Source: Acidobacteriota bacterium
GTDB taxonomy: Bacteria; Acidobacteriota; Thermoanaerobaculia; Multivoradales; UBA5704
Reading direction: 5' to 3'
Assembly: GCA_046765915.1 (NCBI GenBank)
Contig: JBKPTH010000002.1
Span: 28,552 to 92,551, forward strand
Length of the DNA stretch: 64,000 nt
The notes below the pieces were generated by a model. That model saw only the letters and a list, made by a program, of their open reading frames with translations, was not told the origin of the DNA and did not search any database. Each line of letters begins with the position of its first letter. Position 1 is the stretch's first letter. The position numbers were made by a program, and so were the translations under genes. Below, piece by piece: positions 1 through 43,396 of this stretch.

Positions 1-1460
1 CGGACGGCCGGCTGCTGGTGACGACGCAGGGAGGCACCCTGCGCGTCATCCAGAACGACGCGCTGCTGGCGACGCCGGCGCTCACCTTCTCGACGAGCAG
101 CATCTGCACCGATTCCGAGCGCGGCCTGCTCGGGGTGGCCGTCCATCCGTCGTTCGCGGCGAACCATTTCATCTATCTTTTCTATACCTTCAAGACGGGC
201 GGCTCGCCGGCCTGCGTCAACCGCGTCTCCCGCTTCACGCTCCCCGATTCCAACGTCATCGATCCCGCCAGCGAGCTGGTGCTGATCGACAACATGCCGT
301 CGCCGGCCGGCAATCACAACGCCGGCGACGTCCATTTCGGCAACGACGGCTTCCTCTACGTGACGATCGGCGACGGCGGCTGCGACTACGCGGGCGGCGG
401 CTGCGCCGGCGCCAACGACGCGTCGCGCGATCAGCACACGTTGACCGGCAAGCTCCTGCGCATCACCGACACCGGCGGCATCCCCGCAGGCAATCCGTTC
501 CAGGGAGCGGGCACGGCCCGTTGCAACGTCACCGGCACCACCACCCCTGGCAACAAGTGCCAGGAGACCTTCGCCTGGGGATTCCGCAACCCGTTCCGCA
601 TGGCCTTCGATCCCAACACCACCGGCACCAGCCTCCGCGTCAACGACGTGGGGCAGGGGGCCTGGGAGGAGGTCGACGTCATTCAGTCAGGCGCCGACTA
701 TGGCTGGAACTGCCGCGAAGGGGCGCACGTCAACAGCACCACCGGCCCCTGCTCGCCGACGCCGCCGGGGATGGTGGACCCGTTCTTCGAGTACGCGCAC
801 GGCGCCACGATCCCCGGCACCACCAGCCCCGCGAGCTGCAATTGCATCAGCGGCGGCGCTTTCGTGCCCAACGGGCTGTGGCCGGGGTTCGACGGCGCCT
901 ACCTGTTCGGCGACTGCGTCTGCGGCGGCATCTTCCGGCTCACCGGCACGGCCGCGAGCGACTTCGGCATCGGCCTCGGCACGGTGGTGCACCTGGCCTT
1001 CGGTCCGTTCGGCGGCCGGCAGGCGCTCTACTACACGACCTTGGCCGGCGGCGGCCAGGTGCGGCGGATCGTGGGGCCGGACCACCCGTCCGATTACCAC
1101 ACCGTGGCGCCCTGCCGGCTCGCGGACACCCGCATGCCGCCGGGGCCCACGGGCGGGCCGGCGCTCGCCAGCGGCGCGCCGCGCACGTTCGCCTTCGCCG
1201 GGGCCTGCGGCGTGCCGGCCACCGCGTTGGCGGTGGCGCTCAACCTCACCGCCGTCTCGCCCTCCGCCGCCGGCAATTTGACGGTGTTCCCGGCCGGCAC
1301 GTTCCAGCCGGCCACCAGCAACCTCAACTTCACGGCCGGGCAGACGCGCTCCAACAACGCCGTCGTCCAGCTCCAGGCCGGCAGCGTGACGATCTCCTAC
1401 ACCGCGGCGGGGGGGGCCACGGTGCAGGTCGTCGTGGATGTCGTCGGCTACTTCGAATGA
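1..1460 (+). CDS. 5'-partial secreted PQQ-dependent soluble sugar (glucose/sorbosone) dehydrogenase-like beta-propeller protein carrying the recurrent ~120 aa C-terminal domain
   Basis: The reading frame is open from the window edge (DGRLLVTTQGGTLRVI matches the sGDH family), and the NHNAGDVHFGNDGFLYVTIGDGG motif is present. The C-terminal 120 aa has the PCRLADTR...CGVP...NLTAV...SNLNFT...VVDVVGYFE motif shared with 1464-3257 and 26696-27178. Confidence 0.6.
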   Translation, partial: DGRLLVTTQGGTLRVIQNDALLATPALTFSTSSICTDSERGLLGVAVHPSFAANHFIYLFYTFKTGGSPACVNRVSRFTLPDSNVIDPASELVLIDNMPSPAGNHNAGDVHFGNDGFLYVTIGDGGCDYAGGGCAGANDASRDQHTLTGKLLRITDTGGIPAGNPFQGAGTARCNVTGTTTPGNKCQETFAWGFRNPFRMAFDPNTTGTSLRVNDVGQGAWEEVDVIQSGADYGWNCREGAHVNSTTGPCSPTPPGMVDPFFEYAHGATIPGTTSPASCNCISGGAFVPNGLWPGFDGAYLFGDCVCGGIFRLTGTAASDFGIGLGTVVHLAFGPFGGRQALYYTTLAGGGQVRRIVGPDHPSDYHTVAPCRLADTRMPPGPTGGPALASGAPRTFAFAGACGVPATALAVALNLTAVSPSAAGNLTVFPAGTFQPATSNLNFTAGQTRSNNAVVQLQAGSVTISYTAAGGATVQVVVDVVGYFE

Positions 1461-1463
1461 GGT

Positions 1464-3257
1464 CTATTGGAAGTAGCCGTTGACGTCGATGATCACCTGG
1501 CTGGTGCCGAGGGAGGAGTTCAGCACGCCGATCGTCCCCGCGCCGTTGGTCGCCAGCTCGAGCATCGAGTTGCTGGCGCGGGTCGCTCCCGCCGGGAAGC
1601 CGACCGTGATGATGCCCATCGGGGCGGTGTTGCCCGGATAGATGCCGACGGAGCCGGAGGCGCCGCCGGCGATCACGGTGACGTTGGCGGAGACGGCCTT
1701 GGCGGTCGCCGGGATGCCGCAGGCTCCGGTGACGGTGAAGAGGCGGGTCCCGTTGGGAGCCAGGGCCGGGCCGCCGAGCGGGCCGTTGGGGTTGCGGGTA
1801 TCCAGCACGCGGCAAGGAGCCAGCGTATAGAAGTCCGTCGGCGCCGGAGGCGTGGGGGCGACCGGAGCCAGGCAGGCCGGATTGGCGTTGGCCGTCGTCG
1901 TCACGTAGCCGCTCATCCGCGCCGCCTCGCGCCCGGGCTGCACGCCGTAGGGGTGGCCGGTGCCGAAGTCGAGGCTGATGTCGCTGTAGCTGCCGCGCAC
2001 CAGGTGGCAGTAGCTCATGATCGTGCCGCTGCCGGCGCCCGCCGGGCCCGGCAGGGAGGTGGCGCCGGAGTAGCAGCCGCCCTCGCCGGAGTAGCACTGG
2101 TCGATGGGGCTGGCGCTGCCGCCGATGCCGTTGTAGCAGTGGGCGTGGGGCGAGTTGAAGTTGTGGCCGATCTCGTGCGCCACGGCCATGATGTCCCACA
2201 TCACGGTCGGCGCGTTGATGTTGAAGGTGCCGGTGATGCTGGCGGTGAAACCATAGCCGCCGCCCCAGTTAGCGTCCGTCGGCAGGCCCGGACAACTGGC
2301 GCTGGCGCCGAAACCGCCCGAGCACAGCACGCCCAGCCAGGCGATGCCGCCGCCCAGGTTCTTGCCGCTCAGGAAGTGGGCGATGGTCCGTGAGACGCCC
2401 GTCTTGTTGAGGTTCCAGTAGCGGCCGAACTCCATCAGGCCGCACAGGGTGCTGCCGGTCTGCGTCCAGGGATCGCTGGGCGTGGTCCACAGGCTGACGG
2501 ACTGGACGAGGAGCGACGTGCTGATCTCGTTGACGTAGATGGTGGAGGCGTAGCCGATCAGGTTGCCGGCGTAGGTGGTGGCGGTGGCGGCGTTGTTGAA
2601 CTTGGCGTAGTACTCGTAATCGGTCTCGACCGCCACCCGCGCCGTGTGCAGCACGCTGCCCGTCGCGGCCGGGTCGGCTGCCGCCGCCGGCTCGGCGTTG
2701 AGCACCAGGTCCTCCAGGGGATGTTGATTCTGCGGCAGCGCGGTGTTGCCGCAGGCGAAGCCCTCGCCGCGCGCCGCCTTCATCATCACCGGCTCCACCC
2801 GCCGCATCTCCAGCGGCGCGCCCACGGCCTTGGCGGCAACCTCGTCGCCGCCGATCATGTAGGTGTCTTCCCCGCGGGTGACGATCCCCTCCGTCCTGCC
2901 GTCGGGGAGCACGCTGAGGAACACCCGCGAGCCCGGCTCGCCGTCGACGGTGCCGCGGAAGTAGGTGTTGGCCGGTGCCGGCAGCACCTTGGTGGCGCCG
3001 CCCTTGCCGTGAACGGTGATCTTGGCGTCGTCGGCGAACACCTGGAAGCGCTGCAGCACGAACGCCGCGGCCTCTCCCGTGTCCGCCACCTGCACGTTCT
3101 CCAGCCGCAACTCTGCGCCGATCGGCGCCCCGGCGGCCACCTGCGGGAAGTCTCTGCTCTCGATGGACGTGGTGTGCGGCTCTGCCGCGGCGGCCGGCGC
3201 TGCGGCGACCAACAACGCGCAGACGGCCAGGAGCGTTCGGTTCAGGGTCCAGCGCAT
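1464..3257 (-). CDS. secreted metzincin-like zinc metalloprotease with the same recurrent C-terminal domain
   Basis: There is an N-terminal signal peptide (MRWTLNRTLLAVCALLVAAAPAAAA). The zinc motif HEIGHNFNSPH has His at positions 1, 5 and 11. The C-terminus carries PCRVLDTR...CGIP...NVTV...VIIDVNGYFQ. Confidence 0.6.
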   Translation of the reverse strand: MRWTLNRTLLAVCALLVAAAPAAAAEPHTTSIESRDFPQVAAGAPIGAELRLENVQVADTGEAAAFVLQRFQVFADDAKITVHGKGGATKVLPAPANTYFRGTVDGEPGSRVFLSVLPDGRTEGIVTRGEDTYMIGGDEVAAKAVGAPLEMRRVEPVMMKAARGEGFACGNTALPQNQHPLEDLVLNAEPAAAADPAATGSVLHTARVAVETDYEYYAKFNNAATATTYAGNLIGYASTIYVNEISTSLLVQSVSLWTTPSDPWTQTGSTLCGLMEFGRYWNLNKTGVSRTIAHFLSGKNLGGGIAWLGVLCSGGFGASASCPGLPTDANWGGGYGFTASITGTFNINAPTVMWDIMAVAHEIGHNFNSPHAHCYNGIGGSASPIDQCYSGEGGCYSGATSLPGPAGAGSGTIMSYCHLVRGSYSDISLDFGTGHPYGVQPGREAARMSGYVTTTANANPACLAPVAPTPPAPTDFYTLAPCRVLDTRNPNGPLGGPALAPNGTRLFTVTGACGIPATAKAVSANVTVIAGGASGSVGIYPGNTAPMGIITVGFPAGATRASNSMLELATNGAGTIGVLNSSLGTSQVIIDVNGYFQ

Positions 3258-3559
3258 CGGTACCTCTCTCACCAGGGCAGACGCCCGTCGTTGTTCTTCT
3301 TCGAGACGGGAGGATTGTGCGGGACGCAGGCGCCTATGTCAATCCGCGCATGCCTGTGTGTCCCAATTTTTGTCAGCGGGACTGTCACTCCGCGTCCCGT
3401 CGCGTTCTGTGGCCATCCTCGCAAGATGCCTGGAATCAACGTTTTCTCTCCTGGGAACAGCCAACGACGAGAGAGATAAACGCAAACTCCAGGCCCGGTA
3501 AGACGGCCGTCCGCCGGCCCTGAATTTCCCGCCGGGAGCCCGCCGGCGCTCGTGATACT

Positions 3560-6960: not shown

Positions 6961-7227
6961 GCAGCCCGCCTATCCGCGCATGGCTGGCATGCCGGGTCCG
7001 GGCTTCGCCGCCGGTCCCTGTCTGGTCAAGGACACGATGCAGCTCGCCGCCTTCAGCCACAACCATTTCATGCTCGGGCACGCCGCCATGCTGGTGAACG
7101 AGGGCCTGCCCGGCCGGTCATGAGGTCGTGGGAATCGACGCCTCCCCCGCGGCGGCCGTCGTCCGCGACACCGCCCGGCGTGGCTGGCGCTCTACCGGGA
7201 GCTGGGACTGTTTCCCTAGGCTCTTGC

Positions 7228-8724
7228 TCAGCCGGCAACGCCAGCCTCGGCGACGGCCGGGGCGGCCTCGGCGCGCTCGGCCGGGGCGTCGACGCGCCGG
7301 GCAACGGCGATGATGCCCAGGCCTGGACCGGGGAGGTGGGGATCGAGCCTGCGGATCAGCGGCACCAGCACGTTGAACACCTTGAGCTGCACACGGCTGA
7401 AATAGCGCCGCTTGAGGAGCTTGCCGTTGAGCCACCAGCCCGGGACCGAGAGGTGGTTGAAGTCGCGGAAGCTCTCCACCTCGAAGCCGGTGGCGCGCAG
7501 CTCGCGGGCGAGCTGCGCTTTCGAGTAGCGGCAGCGGTGCCCCAGCACCTCGTCGAGCGTCGAATACAGCTCCTGGCCCTGCGGCACGTAGAGCAGCAGC
7601 CGGCCCCCGGGCTCGAGGGCGCTCGCCATGTTGCGCAGCGCCACCAGGGGATCGCGCACATGCTCCAGCACGTTCAGGCAGACGACCGTGTCGAACCGCC
7701 CGCGCCACGGCTCGAAGCAGCGCGGGTCTTCGAGGTCGATGCGGTCGACCTGCAGATAGGGCTTGCCCAGGGCAAGGTTGCGCAGGTACTGGAGATAGTG
7801 CGGATTGATGTCGCTCGCCACGTAAAGGTCGCGGGGCAGGAGCCAGGCGGTGATGTTGCCGATGCCGGCGCCGATCTCGAGCACCCGCGCGCCGCCGTAG
7901 GGCAGGATGGCTTCGGCCATCCAGCGGTTGAAGCGCTGCGCCCGCTCGAGACTGTGGAGGATGTGGGAACCGTACTCGTCTTCGGTGTAGACATCGTCGA
8001 GGATCCAGTAGCGCAGGACGGCGCGCAGGGCCTTGAAGGCGTCCTTCCAGCCGATCTTCTTGCCCTCGCGATAGGTGCGGCCGAGGTAGCTGATCGGCAC
8101 CTCGAAGACGCGGCACTCGCGCTTGGCGACCTTGGCGGTGATCTCCGGCTCCAGGGCGAAGTCGTTCGAGCGGATCGGGATCGACTTCAGAAGCGGCGCC
8201 CGGAACATTTTGTAGCAGGTCTCCATGTCCGTCAGGTTCAGGTCGGTGAACCAGTTGCTCAAGGTGGTCAGGAGACGGTTGCCGAGCGTGTGGCGGTAGT
8301 AGAGGACGCGGCGGCGCTCGCTGGGCAGGAAGCGCGAGCCGTAGACCACGTCCGCGCCGTCCTCGAGGAACGGCTTGGCGAGCCGGGCGTAGTCGCGCGG
8401 GTCGTACTCCAGGTCGGCGTCCTGGAAGACGATGAGGTCGCCGGTGGCCGCGGCGATGCCGGTGCGGATGGCCGCCCCTTTGCCCTGGTTGCGCTCGTGC
8501 TCGATGTAGCGGATCATCTCGGGGTGCCCGGCGGCCAGCCGGCGTAGGATGTCGCGGGTGCCGTCCTTCGAGCCGTCGTCGACAACGATGACCTCCAAGC
8601 CCTGGATGCCGGGCACCTCGACGGCGAGCACGCGGTGCAGCAGCTCTGCAACGAGAAACCGCTCGTTGTAGACGGGGACGACGACGGAGAGCTTGAGTTC
8701 TTGGCTGTTGGCCTGTCCGAGCAT
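7228..8724 (-). CDS. GT2 polyprenyl-phosphate sugar synthase-like (Dpm1/GtrB-type) fused to C-terminal class I SAM-dependent methyltransferase
   Basis: The N-terminus (LSVVVPVYNE...VIVVDDGSKDGT...VVYGSRF) is Dpm1-like. The C-terminus (VLEIGAGIGNITAWLL...VVCLNVLEHVRDP...EPGGRLLLYVPQ) is a class I methyltransferase fold. Confidence 0.7.
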   Translation of the reverse strand: MLGQANSQELKLSVVVPVYNERFLVAELLHRVLAVEVPGIQGLEVIVVDDGSKDGTRDILRRLAAGHPEMIRYIEHERNQGKGAAIRTGIAAATGDLIVFQDADLEYDPRDYARLAKPFLEDGADVVYGSRFLPSERRRVLYYRHTLGNRLLTTLSNWFTDLNLTDMETCYKMFRAPLLKSIPIRSNDFALEPEITAKVAKRECRVFEVPISYLGRTYREGKKIGWKDAFKALRAVLRYWILDDVYTEDEYGSHILHSLERAQRFNRWMAEAILPYGGARVLEIGAGIGNITAWLLPRDLYVASDINPHYLQYLRNLALGKPYLQVDRIDLEDPRCFEPWRGRFDTVVCLNVLEHVRDPLVALRNMASALEPGGRLLLYVPQGQELYSTLDEVLGHRCRYSKAQLARELRATGFEVESFRDFNHLSVPGWWLNGKLLKRRYFSRVQLKVFNVLVPLIRRLDPHLPGPGLGIIAVARRVDAPAERAEAAPAVAEAGVAG

Positions 8725-8758
8725 GGGATCTCTCGAGCAGCGTACGATAACACGCTGG
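8600..8758. repeat. copy 1 of a ~155 bp imperfect direct repeat (5' coding end plus leader of the GT2-methyltransferase gene)
   Basis: It is ~85% identical to 10195-10348 and includes the ATG, ~35 bp of leader and an inverted repeat CAGCGT-N8-ACGCTG. Confidence 0.8.
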
Positions 8759-8776
8759 CCGCGGAGCTAGGTGGAC

Positions 8777-8830
8777 ATGCCGAGCGGGCAATTGCAGGTC
8801 ATCCTGGACGTCAACGGCTACTTCCAATAA
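8777..8830 (+). pseudogene. relic C-terminal fragment of the recurrent VNGYFQ domain (MPSGQLQVILDVNGYFQ*)
   Basis: The 17-codon ORF ends with the same ...VI.DVNGYFQ-stop tail as 1464-3257. It lies between two minus-strand genes with no upstream body. Confidence 0.4.
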
Positions 8831-10313
8831 CGCGCCGCTCGCCTCCATCGAGCCAGGCCCCTGGATACGTTTTTTCCTTGGGCACCCCCATGAGCTCCAG
8901 GAGCCGCATGGGGGCGAAGCCCCCCTGAAGCTCCAGCACGTACGGCGTGTTGTGCAGCCGCCAGAGGTTGTCGAAGTTCGCATTCAGGATCGGCTCACTA
9001 CCGCCCTGATAGATGAAGGCGCCGACCGCCTGCACCCAAACCGAAAACACACAGGCGGCGACGAACAGCAGCTTCGGCAGCGGGCGCAGCGCCGCCACGA
9101 TGGGCGCAAGCATCCAGATCAAGATCGGCAGCACGTCGGTGAGGAAACGTGGGCCGTAAGAAAACCCGCCGCGCCAATCCGAGCGCGCGTAGAGCAGGAG
9201 TTGGAGCACCACGCCCGTGGCGAGGCACAGGGTGAGCTGGCGCCAACGCGGATCCTCCGAGCTGACACGAAAACGGAGCGGCAGAAACAGCAAGAACGGC
9301 GCGAAGGTGAAAAGGCCTTTGCCGGGACTGAAGAGCAGTCCCACAATTCCTACGGGGATTGGCTGGGAGAAGAACTGGGACCCGGCTAGAATGATGCCGT
9401 AGCCGCCGCTCACATTCCCGAACATCCAAAGGTTATAGGCCAGCGTCAACGCAGCCGGGATCGCAGCGGCGGCGAAAAAGGCGACCGCCCGCCTGCGGGC
9501 CCAGGGGAGAGCATAGGCGGCGAAGCCGACCGCCAACAGAGCATTCGCGGGGCGGTTCGCGGGTAGGAGGCCGGTGGCCAGCCCGGCCGCGATCACGTTG
9601 CCCCATCGCGGCTGCCGGGACATCAGCAAGAGGCTCGCCGTCACGAACAGCTCGGTGGCGCCGTGCTGCCAGAGGGCTTGGCTGCTGCTCATCCAGTGGT
9701 TGGTGCCGAAGGCATAGGCGCCAGTCACGAGCAGGGCCTCCTGCACGGCGACGCGGCGCCTGAGCAGCAGGAACATGAGGCCCACCGTCAGGGCGGCGAC
9801 GGTCGATGCCGCCACCTTTTCCATGATCTCGCCGACCACAGCGAGGCGTTGATCGGACCTTCCGCTCTGGTGCAGGTAGAGGACGGCGGGTAAGTACAGC
9901 GGGGTGACCAGCAGCGGCGTCACCACCGGGTAGGTCGAGGCCGTCCGGCCGTCGCGCGAGGTGAGAATCCAATAGATGATGGAATGGGGATACCCTCCGC
10001 GGGTCGCCTCGAGGACGGAGTCGAGGTGCAGGCTTCCCTCCTCCCAGATCGCGAACGGCAGGAAACGGGCCGGCAGCGAGTCGCCGGTCGCAATGGTGCG
10101 GAAATTGGCGTTGTAGACGAGCAAGGACAGAAAAGCCAGCAGGACCGCCAGATAGAGGTCCCGGCGCCCCGCCGGCGCCAGAGCGAGCGGGCGACCCTGG
10201 ATGCCGGGCACCTCAACGGCGAGCACGCGGCAGCTCTGCGACGAGGAATCGCTCGTTGTAGACGGGGATGACGACAGGAGCTTGAGCTCTCTGCTGTTGA
10301 CCTGATCGAGCAT
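8811..10313 (-). CDS. polytopic GT-C-like membrane protein (putative lipid-linked-sugar-dependent glycosyltransferase); start supplied by a duplicated GT2 leader and 5' segment
   Basis: About 12 predicted TM helices with a large C-terminal soluble region. The only in-frame start codons (ATG 10313, GTG ~10210) lie inside the duplicated segment. Confidence 0.5.
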   Translation of the reverse strand: MLDQVNSRELKLLSSSPSTTSDSSSQSCRVLAVEVPGIQGRPLALAPAGRRDLYLAVLLAFLSLLVYNANFRTIATGDSLPARFLPFAIWEEGSLHLDSVLEATRGGYPHSIIYWILTSRDGRTASTYPVVTPLLVTPLYLPAVLYLHQSGRSDQRLAVVGEIMEKVAASTVAALTVGLMFLLLRRRVAVQEALLVTGAYAFGTNHWMSSSQALWQHGATELFVTASLLLMSRQPRWGNVIAAGLATGLLPANRPANALLAVGFAAYALPWARRRAVAFFAAAAIPAALTLAYNLWMFGNVSGGYGIILAGSQFFSQPIPVGIVGLLFSPGKGLFTFAPFLLFLPLRFRVSSEDPRWRQLTLCLATGVVLQLLLYARSDWRGGFSYGPRFLTDVLPILIWMLAPIVAALRPLPKLLFVAACVFSVWVQAVGAFIYQGGSEPILNANFDNLWRLHNTPYVLELQGGFAPMRLLELMGVPKEKTYPGAWLDGGERRVIGSSR

Positions 10314-10348
10314 CGGACCTCTCGAACAGCGTATGTTAACACGCTGGC
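10195..10348. repeat. copy 2 of the ~155 bp direct repeat (diverged, with small indels)
   Basis: It aligns to 8600-8758. Its translation (MLDQVNSRELKL...RVLAVEVPGIQG) matches MLGQANSQELKL...RVLAVEVPGIQG, with a frameshifted middle part. Confidence 0.8.
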
Positions 10349-10397
10349 TGCTCTGGTGGCGAAGGGCGAACTCGAGCTGATATAAGATAACAACTTC

Positions 10398-12452
10398 ATG
10401 GAACCGCTCGGCCGATCTTCGCCGCCGGTCACCGGCGTGCCCGACGCCCTGCGCATGCCGCACCCAGTATCCGCGGCGGCCACGGCCCGCCGCTTCACCC
10501 TGGCCCTCGCCCTGGTGGTGCTGGCGGTCGAGCTGGTCCTATATTTCCCGACGCTCGGCGCTTCCTGGGCCTACGACGACATGGACTACCTCAACTTGGC
10601 CGGGGACGTGCTGGCGGGTAAGCGACCGTTCTGGAACATGGTGTTCTTCCCCCAGGGCGAGCACCTAGTGATGATCCAACGCCTGGTCGTCTTCGCCAGC
10701 TTGAAGCTTTTCGGCGTCGACGTGCTCGCCTTCCGCCTGCTGAATCTGGCCGCTCATGCCGCAGCGGCGGTCTTCCTCGGTCTCATGGCGAGACGCGCCA
10801 GCGGGTCGGATGCCGCGGGCCTCGCCACCGGCGTCACCTATGTGGGGGCCGCGGGCCTGTCTTCGATGTGGGTCTGGTTCCCGACCGGCGCCGGCCTGAC
10901 CTTCGGGATCGCCTTCCTGACCGGCGCGGCGGCCGCCCTGGCCCATCGCGCGCGGCTCGGTGTCCGCCGCGCCCGCGTCCTGGCGGGATTGGGGGTCGTG
11001 CTCGGCCTCGCCTCGGAGAGCACGCTCTTCCCGCTGGTGGCGCTCCCCGTACTGCTCGACGAGGCCGAGCGGCGGCGTGAGGGGGCGCGGCGGCCGATCG
11101 GCGCCTTTGCGGTCTTCTGCGCCGTGGCGGTCGTGGCCTGCGTCGGCCTGGCTTCTTTCTTCTACCGCGGGAACTACGGGGGCTCGGGCTTTTCCATCAG
11201 CCTCCGCCACGGCATCCCGCGCGCCGTCTTCCTGATGCTGGTCGCCCCGTTCCGCCTGCTCTTCCCTGGCATTTGGACCGGCGCCTCCGATCCCGGCTTG
11301 AAGACGGCCGTTCTCGGCAGCGCCCTGGGCCTCGCGGTGGCGCTGCCGGCCGTCGCCCTCCTCCTCGCGCTCTGGCGGCGCGGCGCTCCCCGGCTCGCCG
11401 CCATTGCGGCGTTCGCCGCGGTCGGTCCTTTGGGTATAGTGGGACTGGTCGGGCTGGGGCGCTGGCGCACCAGCTACTGGGAGATCTTCGACGCCGACCG
11501 CTACTTCTTCACCTTGCTGATCCCCCTGTCGCTGCTCGCGGGAGCGGTGGCGGCCACCGCCTCCGAGCGCCTGCGGTCCTGGCCCTGGCGTCCCCGGATC
11601 GCTCTGTTGCTGCTGCTGTTCCTCGCTTTCGGCACCGAGCTGGCGCTCCACCGGCGGGCGATGCTCAACCGCATCCCGTTCCATGTCTATGACGACCACG
11701 AGAGGCGGCTGGATCAGCTCTCCCGGCTTGCCGACCGGCTCGAGACCGCGGCGCGGACCCTGCCCCCGGCTGCGCCGCCGCTCGAGTTTCCCGACACCGA
11801 CTTCTGGTTTCCCGAGGTGCACAACGGCCGGATCTCGGCGAGGCTCTTCGTCTACGCCATCTCCGACCGTGCCGACGGCCGCCTGCGCCTCGGCGGTCTG
11901 CGCGTCAGCGAGCGGGATTCCCGAATCCTCAATGCGGTCCTGGCAGCCTGGGCGCAGGAGATCGGCGAGCCGGGTCCCTTCTTGTCGATCGTCGACGGCC
12001 GTCTAGTCGACGCTCGTATTGCCCCCTTCGTCGATTTCCGAACCGATGCGCACGACGCGGTGGTGGTGAGCGGCTTCTACCGCTGGGAAGAGGCCAGCCG
12101 CTGGATGAGCAGGCGCGGCGAGCTGCGCCTGTCCCTGAGGTCGCGGCACCTCGCCTTCCTCCTGGCTGTGCCGCGGGAGGCCCTTGCCGGGCCGCAGGAG
12201 ATCGCGGTGACGGTGACGGCCGTCGACGAGGAGAGCGGCGGCTCGGCCGGGCTCGGCACGATCCACGTCCGGCAGGAAGGGATCCAGCGTTATCCGCTCG
12301 ACGCCAAGCCTTTCCTGGGCCGCATGGGGGCCGGCCGCATCGTCCGCCTCGTGCTGGAGAGCGACCGCACGTGGCGGCCGGACGCCACGATTCCGGGCTC
12401 GCTCGACCCCCGGCCTCTTTCCGTCCAGGTCTTTGCCGCGGGCTGCGAGTAG
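10398..12452 (+). CDS. polytopic membrane protein with C-terminal soluble domain, GT-C-like (possible glycosyltransferase)
   Basis: About 11 TM helices. The first loop carries the acidic motif WAYDDMDY, reminiscent of GT-C catalytic loops. It is divergent from the neighbouring membrane-protein gene. Confidence 0.45.
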   Translation: MEPLGRSSPPVTGVPDALRMPHPVSAAATARRFTLALALVVLAVELVLYFPTLGASWAYDDMDYLNLAGDVLAGKRPFWNMVFFPQGEHLVMIQRLVVFASLKLFGVDVLAFRLLNLAAHAAAAVFLGLMARRASGSDAAGLATGVTYVGAAGLSSMWVWFPTGAGLTFGIAFLTGAAAALAHRARLGVRRARVLAGLGVVLGLASESTLFPLVALPVLLDEAERRREGARRPIGAFAVFCAVAVVACVGLASFFYRGNYGGSGFSISLRHGIPRAVFLMLVAPFRLLFPGIWTGASDPGLKTAVLGSALGLAVALPAVALLLALWRRGAPRLAAIAAFAAVGPLGIVGLVGLGRWRTSYWEIFDADRYFFTLLIPLSLLAGAVAATASERLRSWPWRPRIALLLLLFLAFGTELALHRRAMLNRIPFHVYDDHERRLDQLSRLADRLETAARTLPPAAPPLEFPDTDFWFPEVHNGRISARLFVYAISDRADGRLRLGGLRVSERDSRILNAVLAAWAQEIGEPGPFLSIVDGRLVDARIAPFVDFRTDAHDAVVVSGFYRWEEASRWMSRRGELRLSLRSRHLAFLLAVPREALAGPQEIAVTVTAVDEESGGSAGLGTIHVRQEGIQRYPLDAKPFLGRMGAGRIVRLVLESDRTWRPDATIPGSLDPRPLSVQVFAAGCE

Positions 12453-26576: not shown

Positions 26577-26695
26577 CGGGCCAGAAGACTAAGGCCAAAC
26601 CGGCAGGGTCGCAACAGCGGAGGGAAGGGATGAATCCAGCGGCCGATTTGTGTTATCCTGTGGTATCCTTATTGGACAGGAGGAGGACCTACACC

Positions 26696-27178
26696 GTGAA
26701 AAGAATCTATGCCTTTAGCGCAGTCGTGCTGACCCTCGCCGCCGTTGCGACGGCATTACCGGATGTCGCCTCGGCCGACGGTCCTTTTCGGTTCTTCGCC
26801 ATCACTCCTTGCCGGATCTTCGATTCGCGGGCTGATGGGGACGGCATCACGCCCTTGGCCAACGGCTTGCACTCGATCCGGGTCCAGGGCATCTGCGGCG
26901 TCCCTGTGGGCGCCAAGGCCGCGGCCCTCAACGTGACGGTTGTCACGCCGACCAAGCCCGGGCACATCACCATCTGGCCGGTCGGCGTATCAGAGCCCAC
27001 GGTGTCGACCCTGAACTTCCTGGCCAACGAGTCGGCGCTGGCGAACGGCGCTATCGTGCCGCTGGGTCCGGACAGCGGGGGCGCGGACGACGTGAGCTTC
27101 CGCTATTCGATGAACCCGGCTCCCGGCACCGGACACATCATCTTCGACGTGACGGGCTACTTCGCCACGGTGCCGTGA
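26696..27178 (+). CDS. small secreted protein consisting of signal peptide plus stand-alone copy of the recurrent domain
   Basis: GTG start preceded by the AGGAGGAGG ribosome-binding site. The signal peptide is followed by PCRIFDSR...CGVP...NVTVV...STLNF...IFDVTGYF. Confidence 0.55.
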   Translation: MKRIYAFSAVVLTLAAVATALPDVASADGPFRFFAITPCRIFDSRADGDGITPLANGLHSIRVQGICGVPVGAKAAALNVTVVTPTKPGHITIWPVGVSEPTVSTLNFLANESALANGAIVPLGPDSGGADDVSFRYSMNPAPGTGHIIFDVTGYFATVP

Positions 27179-27202
27179 CGCGGAGCGCCGGCGCGAGCGG
27201 AA

Positions 27203-27234
27203 AAAGGCGGCCTTCGGGCCGCCTTTTCGTGTTG
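27203..27234 (+). terminator. rho-independent terminator
   Basis: AAAAAGGCGGCC-TTCG-GGCCGCCTTTTCGTGTT is a GC stem followed by a U-run. Confidence 0.55.
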
Positions 27235-27268: not shown

Positions 27269-29299
27269 ATGGAGCTCCGGATCCGGCCCCAGATCCTCCT
27301 CCTGTTCCTCCTTGCCGCGAGCCTTCTGCCTCGCCTGCCGTTGCTGGTCAATGCGGAGGCGGCGTTCACCTCGGACGAGGCCGTCAACGCTCTGGCCGTC
27401 CAGCACCTCCTGGCGGGCCGGGAGCTTTCAGCCTTCAGTTGGGACGCTACCTACTACGGGATGGTCGAAGGTCTCCTGGCGGTCCCTTTCGTTGCGATCC
27501 TGGGCCCGACCGCGCTGGCCTTCAAGCTTGCGGCCGTCCTCGGCTTCCTGGCGCTCGTCGTGGCCGTGTTCTGCCTCGGCCGTGCTCTCTATGGTGAGAC
27601 GGAAGGGCTGGTGGCGGCAGGTCTCCTCGTCATCTTCTCCCCGCAGCTCCTGCGCTGGAGCACGCTGGCCGCCAGCGGTTTCTGCCTGATCGTCGCTTGG
27701 GGGACGCTGACGCTGCTCTGCCTGTACTACACGCTGCGAGAGCCGTCCCGCCGGCGTTTCGCGGCGCTCGGTTTCCTCGCTGGCTTCGGCCTCTACATCT
27801 TCGAGATGTACGTCCCTTATCTCGTGCTCCTCCTCCTAGCGGGGGGATTCACTTTTGTGGCGGCTGTCAGGAATCCGTCCATCTTTCGGCGATGGCTCAG
27901 CAGCGCGGCGGTCACGGCAGCGGGGTTCGCCTTAGGCGCAGCTCCCAAGCTCGCGCTAATCCTGTCGGGCGGGCGGGGAGCGAAGCGACCGGAATACACC
28001 CTGGCCGGGGGCGAGCAGATCCTCTCCAACCTCCGCCTGCTGGTGCGCGCCTGCATCCCCGCCCTGTTCGGCGTGAATCTCCATCCCAGATCGCCGCTCG
28101 AGCCCGAGAACGGGCCCGGGCTGGGGCCGCTCGCCTCCGGGCTCGGCGCCCTGCTCCTCCTCGGGTATGCCGCGGCCTGGGCGTGGGCGCTCGTTCGCTT
28201 CCTGCGGTCCCCGGCGCGAGATGCCGCGCGGAGATGGACTGAGGGGCTGCTCGTCGCGCTCGTCCCGCTCGTGACCCTGCTCTTCGTGCTCAGCCCCAAC
28301 CCCCAGGACGCGGGCTCCAACCGCTATCTCCTGCCCTGGCTGAGCGCGCTGCCGCTGGTGGGAGCCGCCTTGGTGGGGTGGGGACGCCGGAATCTTCCCA
28401 CCGCCCTTGCGGCGGGCCTCCTCGCGGTAGCTCTGCCTGCACTTCAGTCAGCCCTGTGGCTCGTCGACCGCGGCTTTCTCACTCCCTCGCTGGAGGTAGC
28501 GGAGAAACGGGAGCCGCTCCGCGGGGTTCTCCCAGTGCTCGCGGGCCGCGGGCTGATCGGAGGCTACGCCCGTTACTGGGACGCCTACAAGGCCACCTTC
28601 CTTGCCGGCGAGAAGCTCGTTTTCGTTCCCTACATGGGCTGGGACCGCTATCCACCCTACTCGCGGCGGCTGGGCGAGACGGAGCGGGTCGCCTGGATCT
28701 TCCCCGGGGAGCTTGTGGAGCTTATGCCCGCCGGGCGTGCGGAGGTGAACCTGCTGGAGGGGTGGCTGCAGAATCAGCTCGCCAGCTCAGGGCGTCCCTA
28801 TCGGGTACTCCACGCAGCCGGGTATCGCATCTATACGGGTTCAGACGGGCGGCGCCTCCTGCCGCCGCCGCTGCCTCTACAGCCGGTAGTGCTCGCCCGT
28901 CCGCGGACCGAGTTCCTATCCGCCGCCGTGCCGGCACGGGTTGCGGCCGGCTCGGAGATCGCCGTTCCGGTGAAGGTGCTCAACCGGAGCGATGCATTCT
29001 GGTCGGCGTCCGGCCTTCCCTTGCAGGCGGGCGCTCTGCGAGTCTCGGCCTCGTATCGATGGCTGGCGCCGGACGGCCGCGCTCTCGTGGCTGAGGGTGA
29101 GCGCTCGCTTCTGCCGGGAGACGTTCCGCCTGGCGGCATGCTCGATATGCTCGTCCGGGTGCCGGTCCCCGTCGCTACGGGTCCCCATCTCCTCCGCCTC
29201 ACCTTCGTTCAGGAGGGGGTGGCCTGGTTCGACCAAGTCTCTGGAGGCTTCTCCGACCAACCCGTCGAGATTTTCGCTATCCTCAAGGGGAGCCTTTGA
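27269..29299 (+). CDS. GT-C fold membrane glycosyltransferase (ArnT/PMT family-like)
   Basis: About 12 TM helices. The first periplasmic loop has an acidic DE motif (FTSDEAVN). A large C-terminal periplasmic domain follows. Confidence 0.55.
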   Translation: MELRIRPQILLLFLLAASLLPRLPLLVNAEAAFTSDEAVNALAVQHLLAGRELSAFSWDATYYGMVEGLLAVPFVAILGPTALAFKLAAVLGFLALVVAVFCLGRALYGETEGLVAAGLLVIFSPQLLRWSTLAASGFCLIVAWGTLTLLCLYYTLREPSRRRFAALGFLAGFGLYIFEMYVPYLVLLLLAGGFTFVAAVRNPSIFRRWLSSAAVTAAGFALGAAPKLALILSGGRGAKRPEYTLAGGEQILSNLRLLVRACIPALFGVNLHPRSPLEPENGPGLGPLASGLGALLLLGYAAAWAWALVRFLRSPARDAARRWTEGLLVALVPLVTLLFVLSPNPQDAGSNRYLLPWLSALPLVGAALVGWGRRNLPTALAAGLLAVALPALQSALWLVDRGFLTPSLEVAEKREPLRGVLPVLAGRGLIGGYARYWDAYKATFLAGEKLVFVPYMGWDRYPPYSRRLGETERVAWIFPGELVELMPAGRAEVNLLEGWLQNQLASSGRPYRVLHAAGYRIYTGSDGRRLLPPPLPLQPVVLARPRTEFLSAAVPARVAAGSEIAVPVKVLNRSDAFWSASGLPLQAGALRVSASYRWLAPDGRALVAEGERSLLPGDVPPGGMLDMLVRVPVPVATGPHLLRLTFVQEGVAWFDQVSGGFSDQPVEIFAILKGSL

Positions 29300-29470
29300 A
29301 GGCATCGCAGGCCGGTACTTGCAGCGAGTTCCCGGTTGCGTTTCTGAGTTCGCGTAAGTAGAGTCAGATCGTTATATGACCTCAAGTCAGGCTTCTTGGT
29401 GAGTTTGACGCTAGGACGGGTGGTGCGCCGTCGATTCTGACGGCGTCTCAGACGGAGAGACCCCGCGGAT

Positions 29471-29773
29471 ATGGAAAGACCCGAGGAGAGGCTGGAAGAG
29501 GCCCAGGTGAGTGGCCGCTCCGCAGCCGAGACGTTCGACCGCAAGCTGCGCGAACGCGAGCTCGCCGAGCGGGAGGCCCGCTTGACCCGCATGGCCTGGG
29601 GAGCCGAGGACGAGCCGCTCGCCCCATGGTCGAACGGACGCGAGCCCAACGACGAGGTCTGGCGCCTGCAACAAGACGTCGAGCGGCTGGCCGCTTTCCA
29701 TCGCGCGGTGCTCCAATCCAAGGGGTGGCGGGTGCTGCAAGCCTTGCGCCGTCCCTTTGGACGGAACTGGTGA
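29471..29773 (+). CDS. small coiled-coil protein
   Basis: GC3 is high. The stop is 2 nt before the next start. The C-terminus has the motif WRVLQALRRP. Confidence 0.35.
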   Translation: MERPEERLEEAQVSGRSAAETFDRKLRERELAEREARLTRMAWGAEDEPLAPWSNGREPNDEVWRLQQDVERLAAFHRAVLQSKGWRVLQALRRPFGRNW

Positions 29774-41291: not shown

Positions 41292-43058
41292 TTACTGCTT
41301 CTCCGCCTTCTCCAGGAGGAGCTGCTTGATCTCGCGTAGCTCTTTCTGCAACTCGGCGATCTGCGCGTCCTTCTCCTGCACTACCTGGTAGAGCCCCTGC
41401 ACCGCCAACATGGTAATGCCTTGGACATCCATCGGGACGATGTACTTTCCATCCGTTCCCAGGCCGAAGGCGCTCTGGAAGTCCTCGACGGTCGGGCCGA
41501 CGTGGCGCATCTTGCGCTCGTCGTCCTTGTAGCTCCACTCCTGGACCGGCAGCTCGGCGAACTTTTGCAGCACGGCGCTCGAATCCACCGGCTGGAAGTT
41601 CTCCTTGAACGTGCGCGAGGAGTTGTTGGTGAACACGCCGTTCACGGTCAGGCCGTTGTTGGCCGTCACCAACCCGCTGGTTCCGTTGATCGTCATGCGG
41701 CTGGCGTTGTTGGTGCCAAAGGTGATGTCGTCGGCTTCTGAACCCGTCCCGATGAGGAGTCCATTGCCGCCAGCGGCGAGGATTTCTTGGCGGTTGCCGA
41801 GCGTTATGCCGTACCGTGTGGCCGTCCTGCCGCTCCCGTGCGAGATTAACTGCGCCAGGCCGCCGGCGTTATTCTTGGCGCGAAAGCCAGCGAGTGCGGA
41901 GGTGCCCGCGCTGGTGTTCTCGACCTGGATAAAGGTGTTCGCATCGACGCTATCGAAGACGTGCAGCTTCTCGTCCGGGGCAGCTATGTTGATGCCCACG
42001 TCGCCATCCGAGCTGATGTCGAGGCTGCTCGTCGGCGCGCCGGGGCGGATGCGGAAGGACAGCTTGGAGCCGCCGGTGACGTCGCGGACGAAGAAGTTGG
42101 CCTCGTTGGCGCCGATGTCCCAGGTCTGGGCGGTGAAGCCGCCGGAGTTGTTCTGCTCGAGGCGGATGGCCGGCGTGTTGGACGTGTTGATGTGGAGGTC
42201 GAGCACCGGGGTGGACGTGCGCAGGCCGATGCGGCCGGTGCTGTCGGCGAAGATCGAGTTGGTCGCGGCGCCGGCGGTGATGGTGAAGGGCACCTTGCTG
42301 CCGGTGATGTCCTCGATGGAGAACTTGCTCGAGCCGCCGCTCGCCGAGTCGTTGGCGGTGAGCTGCCAGTCGTTGGCCGGGAAACCCGCGGACGAGCTGG
42401 TGTCGTCGAACTTGATGCGGGTGTTGTTCTCCTTCAACCGGATGGTGTCGAAGCCGAAGCTCTCGTTGTTGACGCAGTCGAGGCCGACGCACGCGCTGCC
42501 CTGGACGATGAGGTCGTCCGGGATGACCTGGTCCGCCGCGGTGGAGGGCGTCAGCGCCTTCGAGGCGGCCGAGCCCTTGCCGCGCCTCGGCTCATTGGCT
42601 TCCTGCACCAGCGTGCCGTGGTCGATGCTGAAAGCGCCGGACTGCACCATCGGCGTGCGCGGCAGCTTGCCGGCCTCCTGCAGCTTGGCGATGGCGGCGT
42701 CGTCGCCGTTCTGCCGCGCCGCGGCGAGGGCCCGCCGGGTCGCCCGGTCGAGCACCGGCGCGGCGACGAGCTCGTAGCGGTAGGCGCCGTCGGGAAGCGG
42801 CTTGCCGTCGTCGCCGACGGCCTCGAAGACGATGGCGGCGCCGGCGGCGAACTCACGGCGTACGATCAGACCCTCGGGGCCGGACACGGTCAAGGTCATC
42901 TTCTGGAACTCGACCGACGGCTGGAACTGGATCCCGAGCGGGCTGACGCTCGCGGCGGCCAGAGCGGCCGGAGCGGCGGTCGCCGGCGCCGCCAGCAGGG
43001 CCGCGGCGAGGGCCAGGACCGCGATCGCCCCCCAACTGGATTGCGTGCTCCTCATCAT
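41292..43058 (-). CDS. secreted beta-helix/tail-fibre-like protein with C-terminal peptidase-S74 intramolecular chaperone domain
   Basis: A strong GGAGG ribosome-binding site and a signal peptide. The Gly/Ser/Thr/Asn-rich beta repeats are followed by a C-terminal SSRTFKENFQPV...YKDDERKMRHVGPTVEDF...MLAVQGLYQVVQEK-coiled coil matching the endosialidase chaperone domain. Confidence 0.65.
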   Translation of the reverse strand: MMRSTQSSWGAIAVLALAAALLAAPATAAPAALAAASVSPLGIQFQPSVEFQKMTLTVSGPEGLIVRREFAAGAAIVFEAVGDDGKPLPDGAYRYELVAAPVLDRATRRALAAARQNGDDAAIAKLQEAGKLPRTPMVQSGAFSIDHGTLVQEANEPRRGKGSAASKALTPSTAADQVIPDDLIVQGSACVGLDCVNNESFGFDTIRLKENNTRIKFDDTSSSAGFPANDWQLTANDSASGGSSKFSIEDITGSKVPFTITAGAATNSIFADSTGRIGLRTSTPVLDLHINTSNTPAIRLEQNNSGGFTAQTWDIGANEANFFVRDVTGGSKLSFRIRPGAPTSSLDISSDGDVGINIAAPDEKLHVFDSVDANTFIQVENTSAGTSALAGFRAKNNAGGLAQLISHGSGRTATRYGITLGNRQEILAAGGNGLLIGTGSEADDITFGTNNASRMTINGTSGLVTANNGLTVNGVFTNNSSRTFKENFQPVDSSAVLQKFAELPVQEWSYKDDERKMRHVGPTVEDFQSAFGLGTDGKYIVPMDVQGITMLAVQGLYQVVQEKDAQIAELQKELREIKQLLLEKAEKQ

Positions 43059-43396
43059 TTCCTTCCTCCTTCCATGCATACGGCTGGTGTCAAGGGACCG
43101 GACCCACGCGGTCCGGACCCGGAGAGTCCGTCTCAGGCTGGAGCCCACAAGGTGAAGAACCAGGACTCCAAGATAGTGCGAAAAAAGGAAGAAAGAGAGA
43201 CACCCCGTTCGCCCTCCGGCCGGCCTGGTACCACAGGCGCGTCGAACCGAGATCCGTTACAGGGCAGCGATGAACGCGGCTGGAGGTCGTGCGAGCCCTG
43301 GTGTCAATATAAACGAAATCCACGCGCTTGTCGATTAGCCCTCACTGTTGAATCGAGTGTGCTGTGCAAACGATAAAAGTGATCAATTCAAAGCCC

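Follow-up and report, generated by a model that had tools for sequence, protein, structure and literature searches.

Why should three otherwise unrelated secreted proteins carry the same domain, and what might it do for them? The question is raised by a stretch of DNA from an Acidobacteriota bacterium (Thermoanaerobaculia; Multivoradales; UBA5704), found at positions 28,552 to 92,551 of the forward strand of contig JBKPTH010000002.1 (assembly GCA_046765915.1). This whole stretch of 64,000 nucleotides (64 kb) is called the window here, and positions refer to it unless another locus is named. A preliminary description, made from its letters alone, had seen a module of some 120 amino acids (aa) at the end of a pyrroloquinoline quinone (PQQ) sugar dehydrogenase, at the end of a metzincin-like protease, and in a stand-alone secreted protein, with a relic of the module elsewhere. 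The answer proposed here, tentatively, is that the domain may work in units of three that bind or anchor its carriers at the cell surface.

A widespread domain without a named family

The three copies of the domain are mutually similar. In pairwise BLASTP, copies 1 and 2 are 44% identical (E 3e-34), copies 1 and 3 are 35% identical (E 3e-20), and copies 2 and 3 are 32% identical (E 5e-18). A hidden Markov model (HMM) built from the three and applied to the window in all six frames finds them again at E 1e-57 to 1e-61 and the relic at E 0.0019, with no further match below E 0.1. Both cysteines and an N-x-T tripeptide are found in each copy. Thus, a single homologous module does sit on unrelated secreted proteins, and the copies, the relic and the three carriers (the first matching PF07995, the second PF13688) are where and what the preliminary description had said.

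It had also left the module without a named family, and this stands. The three window proteins give no match to the block in Pfam-A (2025 copy) or NCBIfam 20.0 at E<=1. Neither collection has a model for it in ten multi-copy relatives, and in seven actinobacterial proteins that carry it as a triplet there are only chance-level matches below the curated cut-offs. A sequence-profile search of the PDB returned only repeat-driven, sub-threshold matches to the designed WD40 proteins Ika8 and Ika4, in which no stretch was significant alone. Literature searches returned no specific description of the domain.

The family is large. A full HMMER scan of 1.84 billion representatives (clustered at 50% identity) finds the domain in 34,004 of them at E<=1e-3, in 23,674 at E<=1e-10, and in 9,530 at E<=1e-30. 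Matches in genomes come mainly from Thermoanaerobaculia and other Acidobacteriota (Holophagales, Vicinamibacteria, Bryobacterales), and also from Chloroflexia and Actinomycetes. Triplet forms occur in Acidimicrobiia, Streptomyces, Phycicoccus and Candidatus Dormibacteria, and on plasmids of cultured Streptomyces, Arthrobacter, Paenarthrobacter and Curtobacterium, where RefSeq labels the carriers "hypothetical" or names them by their other domains (PKD, LamG, RHS, cutinase). A phage-borne receptor-binding domain, considered as a candidate, was not supported, tblastn having given no match to the domain in phage genomes.

This is, then, a genuine and statistically solid domain that lacks a curated family; its fold class is common, and its motif set is distinctive. 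Domain annotation has a real gap here, as a domain of about 34,000 protein clusters is left unnamed; to name and characterise this domain would improve the annotation of tens of thousands of "hypothetical" proteins. The Acidobacteriota, Chloroflexota and Actinomycetota of soil are, of course, abundant and poorly understood, and how their secreted enzymes stay at the cell surface is largely unknown.

Fold, conserved residues and units of three

An AlphaFold2 model of copy 1, built with 89 sequences, is an eight-strand all-beta domain (predicted local distance difference test score, pLDDT, 97.7; predicted template modelling score, pTM, 0.90). The domain is thus predicted to be a jelly-roll-like beta-sandwich of about 120 residues, and the signal peptides of its carriers place it outside the cytoplasm, as the preliminary description had supposed. 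A Foldseek search of the PDB with the single domain gave only weak matches (best E 2.6e-3, none at E<=1e-3). Here, the nearest folds are trimer-forming tips such as those of Bd2133, C1q, BclA and pGP3. The best structural neighbour among them is the C-terminal beta-sandwich of Bd2133, which tips a MAT fibre of Bdellovibrio bacteriovorus (PDB 8OK3/8OND; PMC10769870).

Conservation was computed over 1100 distinct instances of the domain. The N-terminal motif is nearly invariant (P6 96%, R8 99%, D11 99%, T/S12 99%, R13 98%), and so is the C-terminal one (D115 99%, G118 100%, Y/W119 96%, F/Y120 97%). Between them, P41 (92%), N50 (95%), T52 (91%) and N78 (92%) are almost as constant. The two cysteines behave differently: both are present in 643 instances, neither in 454, and one only in 3. 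Because they are both present or both absent in 1097 of the 1100, they are expected to form an intradomain disulfide, the pairing that had been suggested from the window alone. Their covariation indicates that some lineages use this disulfide and others do not, the window's lineage having one.

The N-x-T tripeptide, once proposed as a glycosylation acceptor, fares less well in that role. A PglB-type sequon has the form D/E-x-N-x-S/T and lies in a flexible, exposed segment. Here, N (95%) and T (91%) are conserved throughout the family, including actinobacterial copies that lack the cysteines; the motif falls within a predicted strand (residues 46-54 of the model); and the residue at position -2 is S (36%), V (28%), A (21%) or T (6%), and never D or E. 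The sequon reading was rejected on these grounds, and the most fitting role for N-x-T is structural or at a ligand site.

Where the domain sits in its carriers was surveyed in 80 carrier loci from genomes, with 152 domain-bearing segments of open reading frames (ORFs). A single copy is present in 143 of the 152, and in most of the roughly 140 single-copy acidobacterial ORFs it ends 0-5 residues ahead of the stop. The domain is likewise at the extreme C-terminus in 119 of 120 metagenome matches. Carriers often occur in clusters of up to six within 12 kb, and a genome may hold many paralogues. What precedes the domain varies greatly: 59 carriers hold 68 different Pfam families, including FG-GAP, TIG, PKD, reprolysin, SBBP, Calx-beta, GH44, esterases and S9 peptidases. 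In a minority, the domain stands directly behind the signal peptide, ahead of DUF1800, He_PIG or Kelch. In one protein (locus L076), it is N-terminal, and the C-terminus is an S74 intramolecular chaperone, a feature typical of trimeric fibres.

A small stand-alone domain protein (about 150-180 aa) often lies directly downstream of a large carrier gene or overlaps its end (examples in Table 1). This arrangement hints at co-expression and, possibly, at mixed assemblies.

The proteins with several copies are the more telling for the number three. A sample was made of the 151 best-scoring multi-copy proteins, ranked by summed score. Three copies are found in 128 of these, six in 13, nine in 1, five in 7, and four in 1. 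The six-copy proteins are laid out as 3+3, and in at least four of the seven five-copy proteins there is a gap as long as one domain. The linkers between copies have a median of 9 residues. Ranking by summed score does, of course, favour multi-copy proteins, and the informative point is therefore the scarcity of four- and five-copy proteins relative to six-copy ones.

When a Streptomyces roseus protein made up of a signal peptide and a triplet was modelled, the three domains formed one rigid body, linkers included, with confidence (pLDDT 94.8, pTM 0.90). The invariant Arg, Asp, Asn and aromatic residues are kept at all three positions of the triplet. Actinobacterial triplets are joined to CHAP, CAP/YkwD, Rv2525c-like, S8 and Fn3 domains. 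One further triplet is found near the N-terminus (locus positions 7001-8140) of an RHS-repeat polymorphic toxin on the conjugative plasmid pB of Paenarthrobacter ureafaciens (L090 6794-11293; WP_243542105.1). This N-terminal slot of RHS toxins is where cell-wall or carbohydrate anchors are usually found (PMC3482391).

What the domain may do

The hypothesis preferred here, though we put it a little short of even, is that the domain forms a trimeric or pseudo-trimeric unit for surface binding or anchoring. The working unit would consist of three closely packed domains. A tandem triplet in one chain would provide it in Actinomycetota and Chloroflexota. In Acidobacteriota, the single C-terminal copy would assemble with two others, provided by identical chains or by small stand-alone copies. 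The unit would hold diverse secreted enzymes and adhesin-like proteins on an envelope ligand, most likely a surface glycan.

The rationale is as follows. A single chain often provides exactly three copies, from which it follows that the group of three has a task of its own; and because such a triplet is intramolecular, plain oligomerisation of the cargo does not suffice. What the unit does, we infer, is to bind or anchor to a common envelope ligand, probably a glycan. This is suggested by the terminal position of the domain on many unrelated secreted proteins, by the invariant residues at all triplet positions, by a cargo that includes cell-wall enzymes and a toxin, and by the trimeric adhesin tips and carbohydrate-binding modules (CBMs) among the fold neighbours of the domain. 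Among the roles first offered for the module (sorting, anchoring, glycosylation), anchoring would be the most plausible; neither a strict sorting tag nor an N-x-T acceptor is supported.

Such logic has precedents. SLH proteins with a single copy probably assemble as trimers; the SLH fold is helical, and that of CWB2 is alpha/beta. Both modules are found on Gram-positive surface proteins as promiscuous terminal modules, typically with three tandem copies making one pseudo-trimeric unit that binds a cell-wall polymer (PMC6081394, PMC8559796). The domain studied here resembles them as a promiscuous terminal module on many secreted proteins that occurs in tandem threes. This is an analogy of logic and not of membership, as an all-beta sandwich is entirely different from either fold, and no sequence relation exists. 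Appended modules for surface binding or anchoring are a known kind; this one would stand out by its motif set and follow a unit-of-three logic. If the anchor idea is true, the beta-sandwich triplet would be a third structural solution to cell-surface tethering, beside SLH and CWB2. The presence of the domain in cultured, genetically tractable Streptomyces and Arthrobacter opens the anchoring hypothesis to direct test.

Several observations weigh against this hypothesis. The structural similarity to Bd2133 is moderate, and jelly-roll folds recur in unrelated functions. Homology to Bd2133 is unproven, since identity is 11% and there is no match at the level of sequence; moreover, Bd2133 caps a long beta-helical fibre, whereas the cargo here consists of enzymes, propellers and Ig-like arrays, and the trimeric state is a proposed one. 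A Foldseek search of the PDB with the triplet model found no solved chain with the same arrangement: template modelling (TM) scores are <= 0.23, even against a single-chain adiponectin trimer and the triple jelly roll of STIV. It is not evident that all 68 kinds of cargo would tolerate being trimerised by a single tag. The list of best summed scores says little about two-copy proteins and ignores many single-copy ones. Finally, genomic context gives no general pointer to a glycan ligand, as only 9 of the 80 carrier loci lie near glycan genes.

What else might the domain be? It could be a lectin or CBM that targets substrates or the environment, binding external polymers or the surfaces of other cells and so bringing enzymes and toxins to their targets. 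Some of the cargo would suit this (GH44, esterases, cutinase, LamG proteins), RHS toxins need to adhere to a target, and the tip of Bd2133 is itself a candidate prey-recognition adhesin (PMC10769870). Most of the cargo, however, is not carbohydrate-active, and no CBM family in Pfam matches by sequence. The jelly-roll CBMs (CBM6/35/36/22) and the TNF/C1q-like heads (C1q, BclA, the N-terminal domain of Bc2L-C) have no sequence match to the domain either, and its motifs P-x-R-x-x-D-[TS]-R, N-x-T, N-F and D-V-x-G-Y-F are unique to the family. The same invariant polar residues across phyla and triplet positions suggest one common ligand rather than diversified specificities. We therefore consider external targeting unlikely.

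A second alternative makes the domain a C-terminal secretion or sorting domain like the C-terminal domain (CTD) of the type IX secretion system (T9SS). Here, a dedicated machinery in the outer membrane would recognise the folded sandwich and export the cargo; it might also cut off the tag and link the cargo to a surface glycan. The likeness is real, as the T9SS CTD, too, folds as a beta-sandwich and forms the extreme C-terminus of numerous unrelated secreted proteins within one genome. A position within a few residues of the stop, a very diverse cargo and many, often clustered, paralogues would all be expected, and the structurally similar Bd2133 did not tolerate a C-terminal tag (PMC10769870), which could be read in the same way. 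Against this, no NCBIfam or Pfam model for the T9SS CTD (TIGR04183, TIGR04131, Por_Secre_tail) or for any other sorting signal matches the domain, which is also larger, with its eight strands and roughly 120 residues. It is not strictly C-terminal either: it occurs internally, stand-alone, in tandem triplets, and N-terminally (in DUF1800, He_PIG, Kelch, S74 and RHS proteins). No conserved machinery was seen in the neighbourhood of carriers. The domain also occurs in phyla that are not known to have T9SS. The triplets are found in Actinomycetota, which are not known to have an outer membrane. A sorting CTD is, on this evidence, distinctly unlikely.

A third alternative keeps the threes and drops the ligand, making the domain a pure trimerisation device. 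Copy numbers in multiples of three, the rigid triplet model and the trimer-forming tips among the nearest folds are just what it would lead one to expect. A tandem triplet in one chain would, however, oligomerise nothing, and yet it is the dominant multi-copy architecture; and the invariant polar residues of surface type (R, D, R, N, N, D) fit a binding site better. This makes trimerisation without a ligand improbable.

The preferred hypothesis of a three-domain binding unit can also be extended. One may imagine a phylum-spanning surface-display system, previously unrecognised and built on the three-fold unit, in which dozens of acidobacterial enzymes per genome would be tethered by C-terminal copies that co-assemble into trimers, possibly mixed with stand-alone copies, and dock on a specific envelope glycan. 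Copy 3 would then be a dedicated adaptor for, or the first acceptor of, the glycan made by the island that surrounds it. So wide an extension is speculative and, in our estimate, rather doubtful.

The glycan island, copy 3 and the relic

Table 1. Positions of domain copies, carriers and associated features (in the window unless a locus is named).
Feature	Position	Strand	Remarks
Carrier 1, glucose/sorbosone (PQQ-type) dehydrogenase beta-propeller	3..1460	+	PF07995 GSDH, E 1.2e-34
Domain copy 1	1092..1457	+	HMM envelope; C-terminal end of carrier 1, residues ~360-480 of ORF 18..1460
Carrier 1 stop codon	1458-1460	+	Directly after copy 1
Carrier 2, secreted reprolysin-like (M12B) zinc metalloprotease	1464..3272	-	PF13688, E 2.2e-20; HEIGHNFNSPH motif
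Domain copy 2	1467..1835	-	HMM envelope; last 123 residues of carrier 2, stop at 1464-1466
Relic	8777..8830	+	MPSGQLQVILDVNGYFQ, then stop; 3'-terminal 11-12 codons and stop left from a lost carrier gene; homology covers 8795-8829
Stand-alone secreted protein, 160 aa	26696..27178	+	Signal peptide and copy 3; no other domain
Domain copy 3	26789-27166	+	HMM envelope, in ORF 26630..27178
GC-rich 11-bp hairpin, terminator-like	27202..27227	+	Just 3' of copy 3 gene
PMT_2-like GT-C membrane glycosyltransferase	27269..29299	+	PF13231, E 3.4e-5; conserved downstream neighbour of copy 3
Candidate small ORFs (29411-29773)	29411..29740; 29471..29773	-; +	Same place as the pairs in related loci
Small-ORF pairs in related loci	L002 11386-11960; L084 10501-11096; L086 8671-9269; L088 10426-11019		
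Stand-alone copy beside large carrier (L033-type loci)	L026 4402-6874; L078 4363-6839; L037 2986-6882; L015 5386-6859		

A glycan-biosynthesis island occupies the window between about 3.5 and 47 kb. It encodes glycosyltransferases of families GT2 and GT4, GT2+GT1 fusions, GT-C proteins of PMT_2 and YfhO type, a UDP-sugar dehydrogenase, epimerases, an aminotransferase, sulfotransferases and a carbamoyltransferase. The preliminary description had connected the module with the glycosyltransferases of this island. A general connection with such islands was rejected: homologues of the island's glycan genes are present in only 9 of the 80 other carrier loci, so that a tie to glycan synthesis, where there is one, concerns copy 3 and this island rather than the domain as a whole.

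Copy 3 has a conserved neighbour. Its protein most likely starts at the GTG codon at 26696, with GGAGGAGG before it; in this form, it is near-identical to metagenome protein P0001, and it has many orthologues of about 156-178 aa. Besides the window, its neighbours were compared in eight loci from at least five distinct islands (L002, L003, L084-L088 and L026). In all of them, the orthologue is followed by a GT-C-like membrane protein of 535-687 aa. Copy 3 thus is a separate, conserved stand-alone orthologue group beside a PMT_2-like GT-C gene. In one related island (L002), four domain genes lie within 16.5 kb.

A hairpin equivalent to that behind the copy 3 gene is present in six related loci (L001, L002, L003, L084, L086 and L088). 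Its stem is AAGGCGGCC-loop-GGCCGCCTT in five of the six, and GC-rich but different in L088. To judge by its sequence, it may be a terminator or attenuator between the copy 3 gene and the GT-C gene, which suggests that the two are transcribed separately or with attenuation.

It is very improbable that the island's GT-C enzymes have the domain, or just the stand-alone copy 3, as their protein substrate. The orthologues of copy 3 are always followed by a PMT_2-like or unassigned membrane protein, PMT_2 includes protein O-mannosyltransferases, and all three window copies have N-x-T, but that motif has the family-wide, in-strand character described above, no STT3/PglB-type enzyme is found among the island proteins scanned, the conserved hairpin separates copy 3 from the GT-C gene, and most carriers are not near glycosyltransferases.

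Several loci continue, as the window does, with two ORFs of about 95-100 aa behind the GT-C gene and then a 614 aa GT2+GT1 fusion. These two adjacent small ORFs (about 93-102 aa, no Pfam hit on record) are kept between the GT-C and fusion genes in related loci.

The island also holds, at 41295-43148 on the minus strand, a gene for a protein of 618 aa that does not carry the domain and ends in a Peptidase_S74 chaperone (PF13884, E 2.4e-10). This chaperone marks trimeric fibres of the phage-tailspike or endosialidase-like kind, and the protein is reminiscent of the MAT fibres of Bdellovibrio.

At the left edge of the window, the frame of carrier 1 is open from nucleotide (nt) 3, and its 5' end therefore lies outside; its orthologue on L001, the closest related contig, is 77% identical in DNA and reaches further 5'. 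Carrier 2 has a signal peptide, and a Pro/Thr linker precedes its domain. The two genes are convergent, with stops 3 nt apart (1458-1466), and because of this, the terminator of either one must fall within the domain-coding sequence of the other.

The relic is the deletion scar of a lost carrier gene. Its homologous stretch is identical to the 3' end of copy 2 at 32 of 35 nt, including an exact run of 23 nt, and the motif D[VI]xGYF occurs in the six frames of the window only here and in the three copies. It overlaps the stop region of a convergent GT-C-like gene (8811..10463) by 20 nt. A syntenic locus (L048), whose GT2/methyltransferase gene is 80% identical in DNA to window positions 7301-8692, has two intact domain genes between that gene and the GT-C homologue. 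The first is a stand-alone gene like copy 3. The second is a carrier rich in FG-GAP (judged by eye from repeated GDLDGDG-type motifs) that ends in VIVDVNGYFQ and a stop, and is convergent with the GT-C gene and overlaps it. Because L048 has intact domain genes at this place, the window has lost about 3.6 kb, keeping only the tail that overlaps the neighbouring gene.

A direct repeat of about 160 nt (8600-8762 and 10195-10351; 85% identical, with a 1-nt and a 5-nt indel) brackets the relic and the GT-C gene, which shows that local rearrangement has taken place here. A pseudogenised duplicate of the 5' end and upstream region of the GT2/methyltransferase gene (7228..8724) lies upstream of the GT-C gene, whose ORF call probably makes the N-terminus too long.

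A second, longer relic is present on L001, at 1084-1203 of the plus strand. It spans 40 codons ending in GQVHVILDVFGYFQ and a stop, and matches HMM positions 83-122 at E 1e-6. It is intergenic and upstream of the PQQ-dehydrogenase orthologue, a different spot from that of the window relic, and indicates that carrier genes have been lost repeatedly in these islands.

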